Source: Candidatus Krumholzibacteriota bacterium (lineage in GTDB: Bacteria; Krumholzibacteriota; Krumholzibacteriia; JAJRXK01). From it: 64,000 bases of DNA. Both the position numbers and the translations under genes were made by a program. Below the pieces are notes generated by a model, which worked only from the letters and a program-made list of their open reading frames with translations, was not told the DNA's origin and made no database searches. The stretch lies in NCBI GenBank assembly GCA_963727455.1, contig CAVSGG010000001.1:66743-130742 (forward strand), in the 5' to 3' direction. Below, in pieces: positions 1 through 64,000 of the stretch. How positions within the stretch are numbered: position 1 is the first letter of the stretch; each line of letters opens with the position of its first letter.

Positions 1-1743
1 GCACGCTGCGAATACGAAGAGCTCAAGAATGGCCGCGAAGCGATCATCGTCACCGAGATTCCCTACTACGTGAACAAGTCGGAGTTGATCCAGAAGATCG
101 CCCAACACGTGCGCGCGGGGATTATCGAGGGAATCGCCGATCTGGCCGACGAGAGCGACCGCAAGGGAATGCGCATCGTAATTCAACTGAAGAAGGACGC
201 GCATCGCGACGTGGTACTCAACCAGCTCTTCAAACACACAAACCTTCAGTCGACCTTTGGCGTCAACAGCATCGCTCTGGTGGGTACGCAACCGAAGCTT
301 CTGAGCCTCAAGGACATGATGTCCGAGTACTTGAAGTTTCGCGAAGAGGTCGTGGTTCGAAGAACGGAATTCGAATTGCGCAAGGCCGAAGCGCGCGCGC
401 ACATCCTCGAGGGTTATCGTATCGCGCTGGAGAACATCGACGAAGTCGTCGAACTCATCAAGAAGAGCCCGGATGGGCCGACCGCCCGAGAGCGCCTCAT
501 GGAGCGCTTCGAACTCAGCGAGGTCCAAGCTCAGGCCATTCTCGACTTGCGTCTGCAGAGACTGACCGGCCTCGAACGCGACAAGATCGAAAAGGAGTAC
601 CTGGAACTCATTCAGGAAATCGAAAGACTGCGCAGCATTCTCGCCAGCCGCAGTATGCAACTCGGCATTATCCGGGACGAACTGCTCGAGGTACGCGAGA
701 GATTCGGGGACGAACGCCGCACCGAGATCGTGGATGTGGAGGGGGAACTCTCGATCGAAGATCTCATTCCCGAGGAAGACATGGTGGTGACCATCAGTCA
801 CGGTCAGTACGTGAAGCGGCTGCCGGTCGACACCTATCGCCTCCAGGGCCGCGGTGGACGTGGTGTGACGGGCGCGAGCTTGAAGGACGAGGATTGGGTC
901 GAGCACCTCTTCGTAGCCAACACGCACCAGTACCTGTTGGTCTTCACCAGTAGCGGCCGCTGCCATTGGCTGAAGGTACACCAGATCCCCCAGGCGGGCC
1001 GCGCCGCCAAGGGCAAGGCCATCGTGAATCTTTTGGCGCTGGAACGGGAAGAGTTGGTGCGCGCCATCGTGCCCGTGCCGGGAGAGTTCGACGAGAATCA
1101 TTACGTGCTGTTTGTCACCGAGGCGGGACTGGTCAAGCGGACCTCGCTGGATCAGTTCTCCAACATTCGCCGCTCGGGAATCCGGGCCATCGACATCGTC
1201 GAGGGGGACCGCCTCATGGGCGCGGCGCTCACCGACGGCAGCACCCACGTGATCCTCGGCGTGAGGTCGGGAAAGTCGATCCGCTTCGACGAGAACGACG
1301 TGCGGCCCATGGGGCGCACCGCCCGCGGAGTGAAGGGAATCGAGCTCTCCTCGGGCGACGACCGCGTGGTGGGGATGATCGTGACCGACCCCAACGAAGA
1401 GGTCAGCGTGCTCTCGGTGACCGAGAACGGGTATGGCAAGAGAACTCCGCTGACGGAGTATCGCCCGCAGGGTCGCGGGGGCAAGGGCATCATCACCATG
1501 AACATCACCAAGAGGAACGGTCCTCTGGTGGGAGTCCAGCTCGCGCGCGAGGAGGACAGCCTCATGGTGATCACCCGCAACGGGATCGTGATCAAGATGG
1601 CCATGGAGAGCATCTCCAGCATGGGCCGCAACACCCAGGGCGTCCGACTCATCAACCTGGACGAGGAGGATGTGGTGGCCACGGTGGCGCCGGTTGCGGA
1701 GAACTCCGAGCTGGAAGCGGAGGGCGAGGACGACGCGGAATAG
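1..1743 (+). CDS. gyrA: DNA gyrase subunit A (5'-truncated by window edge)
   Basis: Frame open from base 1 (IIVTEIPYYVNK); QAQAILDLRLQRLTGLE; GyrA-box QGRGGRG; C-terminal beta-pinwheel repeats; acidic tail. Confidence 0.96.
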   Translation, partial: ARCEYEELKNGREAIIVTEIPYYVNKSELIQKIAQHVRAGIIEGIADLADESDRKGMRIVIQLKKDAHRDVVLNQLFKHTNLQSTFGVNSIALVGTQPKLLSLKDMMSEYLKFREEVVVRRTEFELRKAEARAHILEGYRIALENIDEVVELIKKSPDGPTARERLMERFELSEVQAQAILDLRLQRLTGLERDKIEKEYLELIQEIERLRSILASRSMQLGIIRDELLEVRERFGDERRTEIVDVEGELSIEDLIPEEDMVVTISHGQYVKRLPVDTYRLQGRGGRGVTGASLKDEDWVEHLFVANTHQYLLVFTSSGRCHWLKVHQIPQAGRAAKGKAIVNLLALEREELVRAIVPVPGEFDENHYVLFVTEAGLVKRTSLDQFSNIRRSGIRAIDIVEGDRLMGAALTDGSTHVILGVRSGKSIRFDENDVRPMGRTARGVKGIELSSGDDRVVGMIVTDPNEEVSVLSVTENGYGKRTPLTEYRPQGRGGKGIITMNITKRNGPLVGVQLAREEDSLMVITRNGIVIKMAMESISSMGRNTQGVRLINLDEEDVVATVAPVAENSELEAEGEDDAE

Positions 1744-1746
1744 GCC

Positions 1747-2646
1747 CTAGTCGGCGCGCGGACTCGCCAAGAACGCGATCATGGGCCCCTCAGCCCGAGT
1801 GAAAGCGGAAGAACGCGCGAGGAAGGTCCACTCGCTGGCAGGAAAGAGCCGCTGGACCTCTTCGGGGGCAAGACGATAGCGGGTGCGGCGCGGGCCCGCG
1901 TGCGGGGCCCCGGGATCCAGCGACGATTCGCTCGCGTAGGTGCGCACGAATACGGCGCCCGCGGGCCTCAACCGCGCGCGCAGCCCTCTCATCAAAGTTT
2001 TTTCGTGGAATCGCACCATCAGCACCAGGCCGAAGGGCGCCTCGGGCAGCCGGGCAGAACTCGTCAAATTAATTTGATGAATTGTGATCCGATCCTCCAA
2101 TCCGTGGCGCCGCGCCCGGTCCTGGGCCAGAGACAGGGCATCAGGCAGGCGGTCGTAGAGATGGACCCGGTAGCCCAGGGCGGCCAGAAACACCGCATTC
2201 CGGCCATTTCCCGCCCCAAGATCCGCGACGGACCCCAGAGCGGGGGCCGGAAGCAGCGCCCGTTGCTCCTGGAGGTAAGGGTCGGGACTCCACAGGGCCC
2301 CGCGACAGGGTCCGGCCTGCAGGGGCAGCTCCTTGGCCGGCCCCGCGAAGTAGCGGGCGTCATGGCCGCGCTGCAGCAAGTACTGCGCGGCGGCGCGCGC
2401 GCGCTCGGGCTCGTCATCGAAGACGATGAGTGAGGAGTCCGTCACGGGCAGCATGTGGGCGGGAAGATCGGCTGCAAAATCCATGGCCTGACCCAAAGGC
2501 AGACACGCGCTCCCGGGGAGATGATTGGCGGCGGAAGGAGGGGGTGGGCGAAGGTCCAGGATGCGACAGCCCCAGTGCCGCGTTTCCTCGGCGAGGGCGA
2601 GAAGCTCGGAAATGCTCGCGGGGCTGAGGGCGGGGCGGGTATCCAT
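1747..2646 (-). CDS. Rhodanese-like domain fused to class I SAM-dependent methyltransferase (TehB-like)
   Basis: N-terminal ILDLR...HLPGS rhodanese pattern; SAM motif I DLGAGNGRNAVFLA. Confidence 0.7.
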   Translation of the reverse strand: MDTRPALSPASISELLALAEETRHWGCRILDLRPPPPSAANHLPGSACLPLGQAMDFAADLPAHMLPVTDSSLIVFDDEPERARAAAQYLLQRGHDARYFAGPAKELPLQAGPCRGALWSPDPYLQEQRALLPAPALGSVADLGAGNGRNAVFLAALGYRVHLYDRLPDALSLAQDRARRHGLEDRITIHQINLTSSARLPEAPFGLVLMVRFHEKTLMRGLRARLRPAGAVFVRTYASESSLDPGAPHAGPRRTRYRLAPEEVQRLFPASEWTFLARSSAFTRAEGPMIAFLASPRAD

Positions 2647-7090: not shown

Positions 7091-7120
7091 TTGACACCCC
7101 CCAAGGCCCGCGATTAGCTT
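7091..7120 (+). promoter_or_regulatory. sigma70 promoter for tRNA-His/hisS
   Basis: TTGACA-N18-TAGCTT ending 12 nt before the tRNA. Confidence 0.6.
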
Positions 7121-7132
7121 AGACGCCCACGT

Positions 7133-7209
7133 GCTGGCGTAGCTCAGCTGGTTAGAGCACCAGATTGTGGATCTGGGGGTCGGTGGTTCGAATCCACCCG
7201 CCAGTACCA
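7133..7209 (+). tRNA. tRNA-His(GTG), atypical: no encoded G-1, G1:U72, discriminator A73, CCA encoded
   Basis: Acceptor stem GCTGGCG/CGCCAGT then A-CCA; D arm GCTC/GAGC; anticodon arm CCAGA-TTGTGGA-TCTGG; T arm GGTGG-TTCGAAT-CCACC. Confidence 0.96.
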
Positions 7210-61122: not shown

Positions 61123-62133
61123 ATGACAAGAGCCATCCCCGCCTCCATTCGCAAGCTCGCCAAGACCGAGCTCCACCAGCACGTCGACGGATCCATTCCT
61201 GCCGCGGTGACCTGGCGCATCATGAAACGCTACGGACTCAACCCGGTGGACAACCTACGCGAGATGAAGAAGCTCCTGGTGCTGCAGCCCCAAGAAGAGG
61301 GCTCGCTGCTGAGCTACCTCGACAAGTTCCACTACCCGATGTGGATCACCCAGTTCTACGAGAACATCACCCAGGTCACTTCCGCCATTTGCGCCGAAGC
61401 GGCCAAGAACGGGGTGACCACACTCGAGCTGCGCTACTCCCCCATCATCCACATCTACGGCGGGCTCACCATTCGTCAGTCCATTCGCGCCGTACTCTCG
61501 GCTCTGAACCGCGCCGAACGAGAATACAAGATCAGGACCGGCCTCATCGTCATCGCCATGCGTCATCACGGTCCGCACATCGCCAAGATCCTGGCCCGCG
61601 GCGCCGCGGGAGACGTCCAGCACTTGCACGACCGGTGCGGGGTGATCGGCTTCGACATCGCCGGTGCGGAAAAGGGCAACGCGCCGCACCTCTTCAACAA
61701 GGCCTACGAAATCGCCGCCCGCGCGGGACTGGGACTCACCGCGCACGCGGGTGAGGCGGAGGGCCCGGCCTACATTTGGGAGGCCATCGATACCCTGGGC
61801 TGCACCCGCATCGGCCACGGTTGCAGCGCGGTGCAGGACAAGGCGCTCTTGAGGCGACTGGCCAAGGATCAGATCCTCGTGGAATGCGCCCCCAGCTCGA
61901 ACTACCAAACCGGCGCCGTCGCCCGCGGGGAGCGCCATCCCATTTTCACCTTCCTGGAGCACGGCATCCCCGTGGCGCTGTGCACCGACAACACCACGGT
62001 GAGCGCGACCAGCCAAAACCGTGAGAGCGCGCTGTTCTTGCAGGAACTCGGCCTGGACGCAATCAAGGAAATCCACCGCAGCGCGGTACAGCACAGCTTC
62101 ATTGCAAAGTCACACGGCAAGAAGGCGGCATGA
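61123..62133 (+). CDS. add: Adenosine deaminase
   Basis: KTELHQHVDGS, ELRYSP, DIAGAE, HAGE, RIGHG, CTDN. Confidence 0.9.
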   Translation: MTRAIPASIRKLAKTELHQHVDGSIPAAVTWRIMKRYGLNPVDNLREMKKLLVLQPQEEGSLLSYLDKFHYPMWITQFYENITQVTSAICAEAAKNGVTTLELRYSPIIHIYGGLTIRQSIRAVLSALNRAEREYKIRTGLIVIAMRHHGPHIAKILARGAAGDVQHLHDRCGVIGFDIAGAEKGNAPHLFNKAYEIAARAGLGLTAHAGEAEGPAYIWEAIDTLGCTRIGHGCSAVQDKALLRRLAKDQILVECAPSSNYQTGAVARGERHPIFTFLEHGIPVALCTDNTTVSATSQNRESALFLQELGLDAIKEIHRSAVQHSFIAKSHGKKAA

Positions 62134-63662
62134 TGCGCCGGCGCGGGCTGATTCTTCTGCTCGCGGGATTCGCGCTTTCGGCCTCAGGCTGTCTGCGCTT
62201 CGGCTGGGACCGGCTCTCCACCAAGGTGCCCTCGGCCGTTCTCGCCACCATGAAAGCCGAGGACATCGCCAAGGACCTGCACGCGCTGGAGGGTGAGGGC
62301 CACGCCCAACGTCCTCCCTTCGGCGAGACGGAACGCCGTACCCTGCGCCACCTCACGCGGCGCTTCGCCCAGATCGGCCTGAAGGGAGCCGGCGACAACG
62401 GGAAGTTCCTCGAGGCCGTTCCCGCCGTGGCCACGCAGGTGCGCGAGGCTGAACTTCAGGTGGGCTCCATCAAATTGCGCCAGGGTGACAATCTGCTGCT
62501 GTCTGCCCGTAGCGACAGCACGCGCATCACGATCCCTTCGAGCCAACTCGTCTTTGCCGGCCGCGGTGTGGTGGCGCCGGAACGCCGTCGCGACGACTAC
62601 AGCGGACTCTTGGTGGCGGGACGCGTCGTGCTGCTCTTCGCCGATTTCGCTGCCGCTTCGCCCGACACCACGGACTGGTATTCGCACTGGCAGTATCAGG
62701 TCGCCGAAGCCAAGCGCCACGGGGCCCTGGGAGTGTTGCTCATGCCCGACTCCACGCGGAGCGCGCAAGAATGGCAGCTATATAAGGATCGCTTCGAGAG
62801 CTTCGCGCTCTTTCGCAGCGAGGAGCTGAAGGAGCACTGCCGCTTTCAGGCCTGGATTTCCGCCGAGGCCGGCACTCGCATCCTCAAAGAAGCAAAGATC
62901 GAATTCGCGCGCGCCCGTTGGGCCGCGCACACGCGCGGCTTTCGCGGGCGCATGCTCGAGCCCAAGGTTCGAGGCACGGTCGAACTCGATGTGCGCCAGT
63001 CCCGATCCTTCAACGTGGTAGGGGAAATTCCGGGCCGCTATGACGCGGAACAGAGCATCGTCGTCTGCGCGCCGTGGGACGGCGGCAGCGCGAACGCGCA
63101 GGCCACGGCGGGGCTCTTGGCTCTGGCCACTTCGTTCTCGGCGCTGCCGCAGCGTCCGGCGCGTTCGGTCGTGTTCGTGGCGACCACTTTGAGCACGCGC
63201 GGCCAGCTCGGCGCCGAACATTTCGCGCACTTCTCCTCGCGCTCTTTGGAGCGTTGCGCCGGGGCCTTGGTTCTTCGCGGGGAGATCGAGGATGCGACAG
63301 GGGCGGCGGCCGTCCCGACAGCAAGCGGCGCGCACCGGGCGGCCTCCTCCGACACTCTTCAGGTCGAAGGCACGGGCGACAACGAGTTGGGGAAGTTCCT
63401 GAGCGAGGCGGCGGGAATGGACGGGCTGGCCGTGCGCGCGAGCAGGGATGAGAGCGCGTGGTTTGATTCGGGCGCGGTGGCTTTCGCGCGCCGGGGCGTT
63501 CCCAGCGCGCTGATCGGGTCCCAGATGAGCGACTTACGCATGGCGCTGCGAGCCGGCTACCGCATGGCGCAGACGCGCGGCGGCCCCCGTTGGGATGCCA
63601 ACAGCTGCTTTCGTTTTTACCCGCGAGAATCCCTCGTGGCCTACGCCGATTCCCTGCGCTGA
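62130..63662 (+). CDS. M28 peptidase-like lipoprotein with PA domain, zinc ligands degenerate
   Basis: Lipobox ASGC; LVFAGRGVVAPE..DDY PA domain; SFNVVGEIPG; RSVVF. Confidence 0.68.
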   Translation: MMRRRGLILLLAGFALSASGCLRFGWDRLSTKVPSAVLATMKAEDIAKDLHALEGEGHAQRPPFGETERRTLRHLTRRFAQIGLKGAGDNGKFLEAVPAVATQVREAELQVGSIKLRQGDNLLLSARSDSTRITIPSSQLVFAGRGVVAPERRRDDYSGLLVAGRVVLLFADFAAASPDTTDWYSHWQYQVAEAKRHGALGVLLMPDSTRSAQEWQLYKDRFESFALFRSEELKEHCRFQAWISAEAGTRILKEAKIEFARARWAAHTRGFRGRMLEPKVRGTVELDVRQSRSFNVVGEIPGRYDAEQSIVVCAPWDGGSANAQATAGLLALATSFSALPQRPARSVVFVATTLSTRGQLGAEHFAHFSSRSLERCAGALVLRGEIEDATGAAAVPTASGAHRAASSDTLQVEGTGDNELGKFLSEAAGMDGLAVRASRDESAWFDSGAVAFARRGVPSALIGSQMSDLRMALRAGYRMAQTRGGPRWDANSCFRFYPRESLVAYADSLR

Positions 63663-63676
63663 AAGAAACTCTCGGG

Positions 63677-63826
63677 CAAAGAGAAGGCGACCCAAAGGGC
63701 CGCCTCCCGACATGTCCGATGCTGTAGTGACAAGACTCCGAGGCTCAGGTCTGTTACCAGAGTCCCAGCAGAGCGATTCGCTCAGCCCGGAGTGTTCGGC
63801 TAACATCTGAAGCCGTTTCCAGCCTC
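63677..63826 (-). ncRNA. Candidate stand-alone structured ncRNA of unknown family
   Basis: TATAAT 6 nt upstream; 5' GAAA-tetraloop hairpin; multi-stem core with GTAA tetraloop; 3' terminator; G:U pairs only on the minus strand. Confidence 0.55.
63678..63708 (-). terminator. Intrinsic terminator hairpin
   Basis: GGGAGGCGGCCC-TTT-GGGTCGCCTTCT-CTTT. Confidence 0.62.
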
Positions 63827-63832
63827 ATGTTC

Positions 63833-63838
63833 ATTATA
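63833..63838 (-). promoter_or_regulatory. Consensus -10 box
   Basis: Perfect TATAAT on the minus strand in GC-rich DNA; TTGGCT 19 nt upstream. Confidence 0.5.
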
Positions 63839-64000
63839 CGGAATCGCGGGCCTTTTGAGCCAAGTCAGGCCAAATTTTCTATTTCGAGCACGAAATCGGC
63901 CGATTCGGGGCTGAATCCGAAGATCTGGCCGTAGAACGAGAGTTCCGCCGCGAAGCTCCGCACGATGTTTTTCTGGCGGCGGAAGCCGTGCCCTTCCCCC

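Follow-up and report, generated by a model that had tools for sequence, protein, structure and literature searches.

What occupies the 202-nt gap that separates the stop codons of two convergent peptidase genes at the end of a contig of Candidatus Krumholzibacteriota? The stretch of DNA analysed here, hereafter the window, covers 64,000 nucleotides (G000:C1:66743-130742), and the initial annotation had proposed that the minus strand of this gap carries a novel structured RNA of about 150 nt with a promoter and a terminator of its own. Based on sequence comparison, our preferred reading is that the element is a small non-coding RNA gene of ~150 nt that belongs to one genus-level clade of Krumholzibacteriota and is located directly behind a gene of the S9 peptidase family. 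We give this reading a probability of roughly one half. Stated more broadly, the comparative evidence makes it very probable that the element is either a small RNA or an RNA derived from a 3′ UTR, young and restricted to this lineage.

The window comes from a genome of 3.46 Mb (88.85% complete; G000), which was compared with that of a sister species of the same genus (96% complete; G001). Next to the element, on the same strand, lies the 3′ end of an S9 prolyl-oligopeptidase-family gene (63865..64000, minus strand), represented by its last 44 codons and the stop codon at 63867-63865. This reading frame is open to the end of the window, which coincides with the end of contig C1, so that both window and contig end inside the gene; its remainder is found at the start of contig C4. 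The family assignment comes from the full-length ortholog of the sister species, which matches Pfam Peptidase_S9 with an E-value of 1.3e-45. On the other side of the gap, an M28-family peptidase gene (62130..63662, plus strand; Pfam Peptidase_M28, 3.1e-08) runs towards the element, and its stop codon is 15 nt away from the foot of the terminal hairpin described below. This gene is preceded by an adenosine deaminase gene (61123-62133, plus strand; Pfam, 7.5e-70). The element had been judged not to be the leader of a gene on its own strand and this holds true, as the next gene is M28, which is convergent in all five loci where the element was found.

Some irregularities of the S9 gene were also observed. 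The end of C1 and the start of C4 are directly adjacent bases of this gene, with neither gap nor overlap, and the metagenome contig L052 reads through the junction. A contig of genome G003 (end of L034, G003:C28) breaks at the same S9 base as C1, just before a GGGGG run. The shared break point looks like an artefact of assembly or contig splitting and not like biology. Moreover, the S9 gene of the source genome is divided over two overlapping frames, 905..2083 and 3..1217 (L046, which is G000:C4, minus strand; overlap 905-1217), and the shift of frame falls where the sister species reads ...RLVFLGGSPT... This split could reflect a genuine frameshift or else a sequencing error in a homopolymer.

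Read on the minus strand from 63827 to 63678, the element folds into a 5′ hairpin with a GNRA loop, followed by a stem that surrounds a tight three-way junction and by a terminal hairpin of 12 bp. Every feature listed by the initial annotation could be located in the minus-strand sequence. The 5′ hairpin P1 (63808..63827, minus strand) was delimited from the fold and the pair counts and comprises 8 bp, made of GAGGCUG-GAAA-CGGCUUC (63826-63809) and a flanking U-A pair, such that 63827-63820 pairs with 63815-63808. Its start coincides with the expected transcription start, at about 63826. The core domain P2-P5 (63718..63807, minus strand) was derived from the consensus fold, the pair counts, and the minimum-energy fold of the source sequence. 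Within it, an outer stem P2 (GAUGUU/AGCAUC; 63807-63802 with 63723-63718) and an inner stem P3 (ACUCCG/CGGAGU; 63793-63788 with 63740-63735), both read from the minus-strand sequence, are separated by an internal loop containing four weak pairs. The outer stem has a two-pair extension (AG with CU) that is lost in the sister species. P3 closes the three-way junction, which has linkers of 1, 1, and 0 nt and bears the hairpins P4 and P5. P4 (63786-63768, minus strand; sequence and consensus fold) reads GC-U-GAGCG-AAU-CGCUC-U-GC, with an AAU triloop and one U-U mismatch, while P5 (63766-63741, minus strand; consensus fold) carries a variable loop.

The core is joined to the terminal hairpin by a single-stranded linker of 9 nt (63709..63717, minus strand), which according to the alignment reads GGACAUGUC in the source genome and GGACACUUC in every other sequence, and which is the longest conserved unpaired stretch of the element. 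The terminal hairpin (63678..63708, minus strand; fold and pair counts) has a stem of 12 bp, including 3 G-U pairs, formed by 63708-63697 with 63693-63682. It has a 3-nt loop and is followed by C-UUU-G. When a 159-nt version of the source sequence was folded, its minimum-energy structure retained P1, the extended outer stem, the inner stem, and both inner hairpins.

The comparison with the sister lineage altered one part of the original structural proposal. In place of the hairpin TCTG-GTAA-CAGA, which is not conserved, the sister lineage has UUCAGG-CGCCAGGU-CCUGAA, and this supports CUCUGG/CCUGAG as the P5 stem of the source genome instead. From the source to the sister lineage, a C-G pair of P5 becomes U-A, a U-A pair becomes C-G, and a U-U mismatch becomes A-U. 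Of the two GNRA loops that had been proposed, the one capping P1 is conserved, as GAAA in the source and GCAA in the sister lineage, but the second is not.

The fold depends on the strand, as had been claimed. Folding of the minus strand yielded -68.1 kcal/mol (z -4.02), a value as good as which was reached by none of 200 shuffled sequences, whereas the plus strand yielded a z of only -1.67, with 11 of 200 shuffles as good. The ortholog of the sister species folded on the minus strand with a z of -4.63. In addition, G-U pairs occur in at least one sequence at 11 positions of the consensus structure, whose plus-strand counterparts would be A-C mismatches; the G-U switches thus fit the minus strand only.

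Next, we consider whether the element belongs to a described RNA family. The comparison made use of the 4227 covariance models of Rfam 15, with the gathering threshold of each family as the criterion. At these thresholds, the whole window matched nothing but a tRNA at 7133-7206. When E-values up to 10 were allowed between 63500 and 64000, the only match was mir-1281, with 16.4 bits against a threshold of 70. The orthologous loci L051, L088, and L081, searched with E-values up to 5, gave seven weak matches, all below threshold; those lying over the RNA were RMST_3 (20.7 against 55) and STnc70 (18.5 against 40). The element was thus rightly called novel, with none of the 4227 families reaching its threshold. 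The same is true of the statement that it is neither SRP RNA nor 6S RNA. The source genome encodes its own SRP RNA (RF00169; G000:C5:156930-157028, 78.4 bits) and its own 6S RNA (RF00013; G000:C5:583654-583833, 60.2 bits), and the element matches neither model. Both RNAs were detected in each of the five genomes of the genus. Because these genes are present elsewhere in the genome, the element is not a divergent copy of either one.

Coding and mobile origins were considered as well. Two open reading frames overlap the element, one of 90 aa on the minus strand (63534-63806) and one of 71 aa on the plus strand (63595-63810), and neither is conserved. Two 1-nt indels between the source genome and the sister species shift both frames, and one of these causes the 90-aa frame to stop after 7 codons in the sister species. 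The element is present in a single copy in the source genome, and blastn returned no match in plasmids or phages. Three viral contigs share only an 18-mer hairpin with it, and none of the three matches the covariance model (best score of 13 bits).

The distribution of the element is narrow. Among 61 related genomes, blastn detected one full-length match, in the sister species (84% identity over 186 nt, E-value 7.6e-51), while all other matches were of 44 nt or less. Likewise, when 185,579 species genomes were scanned for an exact 20-mer, only this sister species was recovered. The two sequences were used to build a covariance model, which gave hits in 2 of the 10 genomes of the family and, in a phylum-level sample of 151 genomes, again in 2. 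Metagenome contigs extended this set: an exact 18-mer scan yielded 69 loci, of which three matched the model over its full length (134.8-136.1 bits), namely L052, which is identical to the source genome, L081, a close variant of it, and L088, which is of the sister type. The remaining 66 loci are unrelated, with scores of 21.4 bits or less.

All five loci display the same order of S9 gene, element, and convergent M28 gene. Outside of them, an unfiltered model search beside the S9 and M28 orthologs of G002-G005 recovered no element, and the best score outside the sister species was 11.1 bits. In G004, the S9 ortholog (67% identical) converges at a distance of ~30 nt on a gene of 360 aa (L035, G004:C4 1459-1494) that takes the place of the adenosine deaminase, an assignment made by position alone; this locus has neither the M28 gene nor the element. 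In G002, an M28 ortholog (48% identical) occurs elsewhere in the genome, where the gene that follows it is on the same strand, and no element is found there. More distant M28 homologs were detected in 25 of 208 genomes of the phylum, and the unfiltered model recovered no element beside the 22 of them that were searched (best score of 14 bits). The contig of G003 ends 44 codons before the S9 stop codon, and its last bases match L081. In the genomes examined, the element is thus seen only where an M28 gene stands between two older neighbours, and it therefore looks young. This pattern suggests a joint gain of the M28 gene and the element in the lineage of the source and sister species, or else their joint loss in G004.

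The L081 lineage displays an extra insertion of ~44 nt, which separates the terminal hairpin from the M28 stop codon (see also the X3 loose end, 63662). This insertion is G+C-rich and forms a hairpin, and it may be a separate terminator of the M28 gene.

The pattern of variation provided insights into the constraints acting on the element. Four distinct sequences and a consensus of 52 pairs entered the pair analysis, the structure having itself been inferred from the same four. Standard pairs occupy every one of the 208 pair cells (208/208) and none is broken; in a control in which the 3′ partners were slid by 1-3 columns, only 36-51% of cells paired. Invariant pairs make up 44 of the 52. Two pairs, both in P5, have changed on both sides, and six have changed on one side, always by switches between G-U and G-C or between U-A and U-G. 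P2, P3, and P4 are invariant, whereas P5 contains one pair changed on one side in addition to the two changed on both, and four of the eight pairs of P1 switch between G-C and G-U or between U-A and U-G without any being broken. By hand count, variable columns amount to 10 of 104 among paired positions compared with 14 of 43 among unpaired ones (Fisher p = 0.0012). The check for covariation proposed at the outset thus had a mixed outcome: two double-sided changes and no broken pair speak for the structure, but the four sequences stem from essentially a single deep split, supplemented by close variants, and the covariation score was reached by 15 of 500 shuffles. Covariation is therefore suggestive and not statistically secure, since only four distinct sequences, representing essentially two lineages, are available.

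At shorter distance, between the source genome and L081, the RNA body is identical at 120 of 120 positions, compared with 123 of 133 at the coding end of S9 and 239 of 263 at the coding end of M28. Between the source genome and the sister species, the identity of the RNA body (98 of 119) is no better than that of the S9 coding end (108 of 133). Contigs from four public sequencing runs differ from the source within the RNA only at 63711-63712, in the linker, and not at all in 63713-63844. Over 365 nt, the contig X7 record 10 differs by 19 mismatches and 2 indels, all of them outside 63713-63844; for 21 events spread over 365 positions, we calculate a probability of about 8e-5 that every one would miss these 132. 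In the flanks of these contigs, differences are spaced at intervals of 3 nt, the pattern that coding DNA should show. Strain variants therefore retain an unchanged RNA body next to coding DNA that is 7-9% different. These data support the view that the element exists as a structured, strand-specific feature, that it does not code for protein, and that purifying selection acts on it.

Is the element also transcribed from a promoter of its own, as had been proposed? The alignment reveals a -10 hexamer TATAAT (63833..63838, minus strand) that matches the consensus at all six positions and has an invariant upstream flank, ATTCCG. It is located 27 nt after the S9 stop codon, which itself stands 37 nt before P1 (63827), and it lies 6 nt upstream of the hairpin start at 63826 and 5 nt from P1. 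The hexamer is invariant in the five aligned loci and in the covering contigs of the four public sequencing runs. The genome of 3.46 Mb contains 57 copies of TATAAT, counting both strands, and 7 of these, including that of the element, have a TTG about 16-22 nt upstream. For the element, this corresponds to a possible -35 hexamer TTGGCT (63858..63863, minus strand), which matches TTGACA at four of six positions, reads CTGGCT in the sister species and in L088, and is separated from TATAAT by a spacer of 19 nt. The sequence of the spacer varies while its length is kept, and one strain variant combines a 1-nt deletion and a 1-nt insertion placed 6 nt apart. The tRNA genes of the source genome are preceded by clear TTGACA-N16-18-TAnnnT promoters, and the organism therefore uses promoters of the sigma-70 type. 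A consensus scan of the region that allowed spacers of 16-18 nt returned no sigma-70 promoter and did not accept the TTGGCT site. The proposed promoter is thus borne out in its perfect and conserved TATAAT, but its -35 hexamer is weak, its spacer is long at 19 nt, and the scan found nothing. A search for sequencing runs that contain this stretch listed none of RNA.

Two further observations concern these promoter motifs. The 13-mer AAGGCCCGCGATT occurs in exactly two copies in the 3.46-Mb genome, both of them in the window (63854-63842, minus strand, and 7103-7115, plus strand). One copy sits in the candidate promoter spacer and the other in the TTGACA-N18-TAGCTT spacer of the tRNA-His gene (7133-7206). 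This sharing could be due to chance or to a common promoter-associated site. Separately, some of the TATAAT copies cluster in short, very A+T-rich islands outside high-GC3 gene calls (for example C9:244633-244645, C9:341639-341659, and C14:46541-46562), which may be foreign or mobile DNA.

The termination signal is likewise clear in one half and poor in the other. The 12-bp hairpin is strong and conserved, its stem is rich in G+C as a terminator requires, and in the sister lineage one G-U pair switches to G-C, a change that fits the minus strand only. The tail that follows contains only 3-4 U, read either as C-UUU-G after a 12-bp stem or as CUCUUUGC after a 10-bp stem, and a terminator consensus scan of the region (U run of at least 5 of 8) returned no intrinsic terminator and did not accept this hairpin. 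The terminator of the initial annotation thus stands as regards its stem, but not as regards its U-tail. No hairpin or terminator was found between the S9 stop codon and the element; transcripts of S9 therefore include the element, which makes up at least part of the 3′ UTR of this gene. The terminal hairpin is likely a terminator shared by the small RNA and the S9 mRNA.

From these features, a mode of action can be postulated for the small RNA. RNA polymerase would start ~7 nt after the conserved TATAAT, at about 63826, and the transcript would fold at once into the GNRA-capped 5′ hairpin, the long stem, and the rigid three-way junction. Transcription would end at the 12-bp terminal hairpin, before the convergent M28 gene. 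The same RNA would also make up the 3′ end of the S9 mRNA, from which processing could release it. The folded body of the RNA would then be its active part, binding a protein or making short contacts by way of loops and linker. Such action is expected because pairing is nearly total, only about 9 nt are single-stranded, and neither Hfq (Pfam PF17209) nor CsrA (Pfam PF02599) was found in the two genomes searched, the source genome being 88.85% and the sister genome 96% complete, such that either gene could still have escaped detection. No long accessible seed was found in the RNA, and a classical antisense regulator with a long seed and a dependence on Hfq would not be expected. In an RNAduplex scan against 3703 crude start regions, the RNA (best value of -72.6) performed no better than two shuffled RNAs (-68.7 and -69.6), and the duplexes were unrealistically long and looped. 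Action in trans, as inferred by the initial annotation, is a prediction.

A separate small RNA is not the only possible explanation. The element might act solely in cis, as a 3′ UTR that terminates or stabilises the S9 mRNA, for instance as a barrier to 3′ exonucleases or to transcription arriving from the convergent M28 gene, in which case TATAAT would not be a promoter and no separate RNA would exist. We regard this as a tentative alternative with perhaps half the weight of a small RNA gene. It draws on the fact that the element always follows this S9 gene, on a -35 hexamer and spacing outside the range seen at the tRNA promoters, and on the short distance between the S9 stop codon and TATAAT, across which S9 transcripts must enter the element in the absence of a terminator. 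An mRNA end of this kind would, however, hardly call for an elaborate invariant structure of ~110 nt, far beyond the needs of a terminator or stabiliser, nor for a TATAAT that is rare in the genome (57 copies), invariant, and held at a fixed distance from TTGGCT by compensating indels. Besides, the S9 ortholog of G004 manages without the element, with only ~30 nt to the convergent gene, and in the source genome the S9 frame appears broken while the element is intact. A lack of any function is improbable by comparison. On that account, the element would be a young intergenic remnant of the M28 insertion that folds well by accident, and it would look conserved because little time has passed since divergence or because of recombination. 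The small set of four distinct sequences, the 44 of 52 pairs that are invariant, and the derivation of the structure from these same sequences are compatible with such a remnant, as is the absence of the element from G002 and G004, the remaining congeners in which this could be assessed. Yet strains whose flanking coding DNA has diverged by 7-9% share an unchanged RNA body, pairing is kept in all 10 variable paired columns with variation concentrated in loops, and the strand-specific stability, with a z near -4, recurs in two species.

Least probable of all, in our judgement, is an antisense switch directed at the neighbouring operon. Here a sensor fold, composed of the GNRA-capped hairpin and the rigid three-way junction and acting like a riboswitch or as a protein-controlled attenuator, would gate the weak terminator, and the read-through transcript, antisense to the M28 and adenosine deaminase operon, would lower its expression. 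The parts are arranged as such a switch would need them, with a promoter, a structured domain, a hairpin with a weak U-tail, and a convergent operon 15 nt away. Among the genomes examined, the element is also found only where M28 lies between adenosine deaminase and S9 (in the source and sister species), and in G004, where these neighbours are directly convergent, both M28 and the element are missing. Nevertheless, no known aptamer matches the element, its junction linkers of 1, 1, and 0 nt leave no obvious pocket for a ligand, and an anti-terminator pairing sought by eye amounted to 5 nt (GCCUC with GAGGC), which is unconvincing. Riboswitch classes are usually widespread, whereas the element was detected in 2 of 151 genomes of the phylum. 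If true, the switch would represent a new class of aptamer or protein-responsive attenuator that arose recently within a single genus of an uncultured phylum.

The predicted small RNA gene can be compared with systems known from other bacteria. DapZ of Salmonella and MicL of E. coli are small RNAs encoded at the 3′ end of protein-coding genes, which have their own promoters, depend on Hfq, and make use of a single-stranded seed. The element is similar to them in being a putative RNA gene on the same strand at the end of a coding gene, with a candidate promoter by the stop codon and a terminator in common with the upstream mRNA. It differs from them in that it is almost wholly paired and Hfq was found in neither of the two genomes, in that no relationship exists at the level of sequence or Rfam family, and in that its transcription is only predicted. 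Meanwhile, 6S RNA (RF00013) and SRP RNA (RF00169) are small, highly paired, stand-alone RNAs that bind proteins and have their own promoters, traits that the element would share if its predicted binding and expression are correct. Those families are nearly universal, whereas the element is confined to one genus-level clade. Finally, AspocR of Listeria, which depends on B12, and EutX of Enterococcus are antisense RNAs controlled by riboswitches. Like these, the element combines a candidate promoter, a structured domain, and a terminator that faces a convergent gene or operon, but it contains no known aptamer fold, its tight junction has no evident pocket, and its distribution is very narrow.

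Candidatus Krumholzibacteriota is a phylum known only from metagenomes. Our full-text literature search for Krumholzibacteriota together with noncoding RNA returned no paper, and in the parts of the literature covered by a further search with related terms, no paper named this phylum. The element is new as a family and ordinary as a kind, being a small structured RNA behind a gene. Its practical value is limited, considering that it is present in few species of an uncultured organism, has no target that can be named, and is of a familiar type. Seen where the M28 gene separates two older neighbours and missing in G004, where these adjoin, the element also illustrates how young small RNA genes can arise. 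Should it be expressed, it would, to the extent of these searches, be the first candidate for a specific regulatory RNA to be described in Candidatus Krumholzibacteriota.
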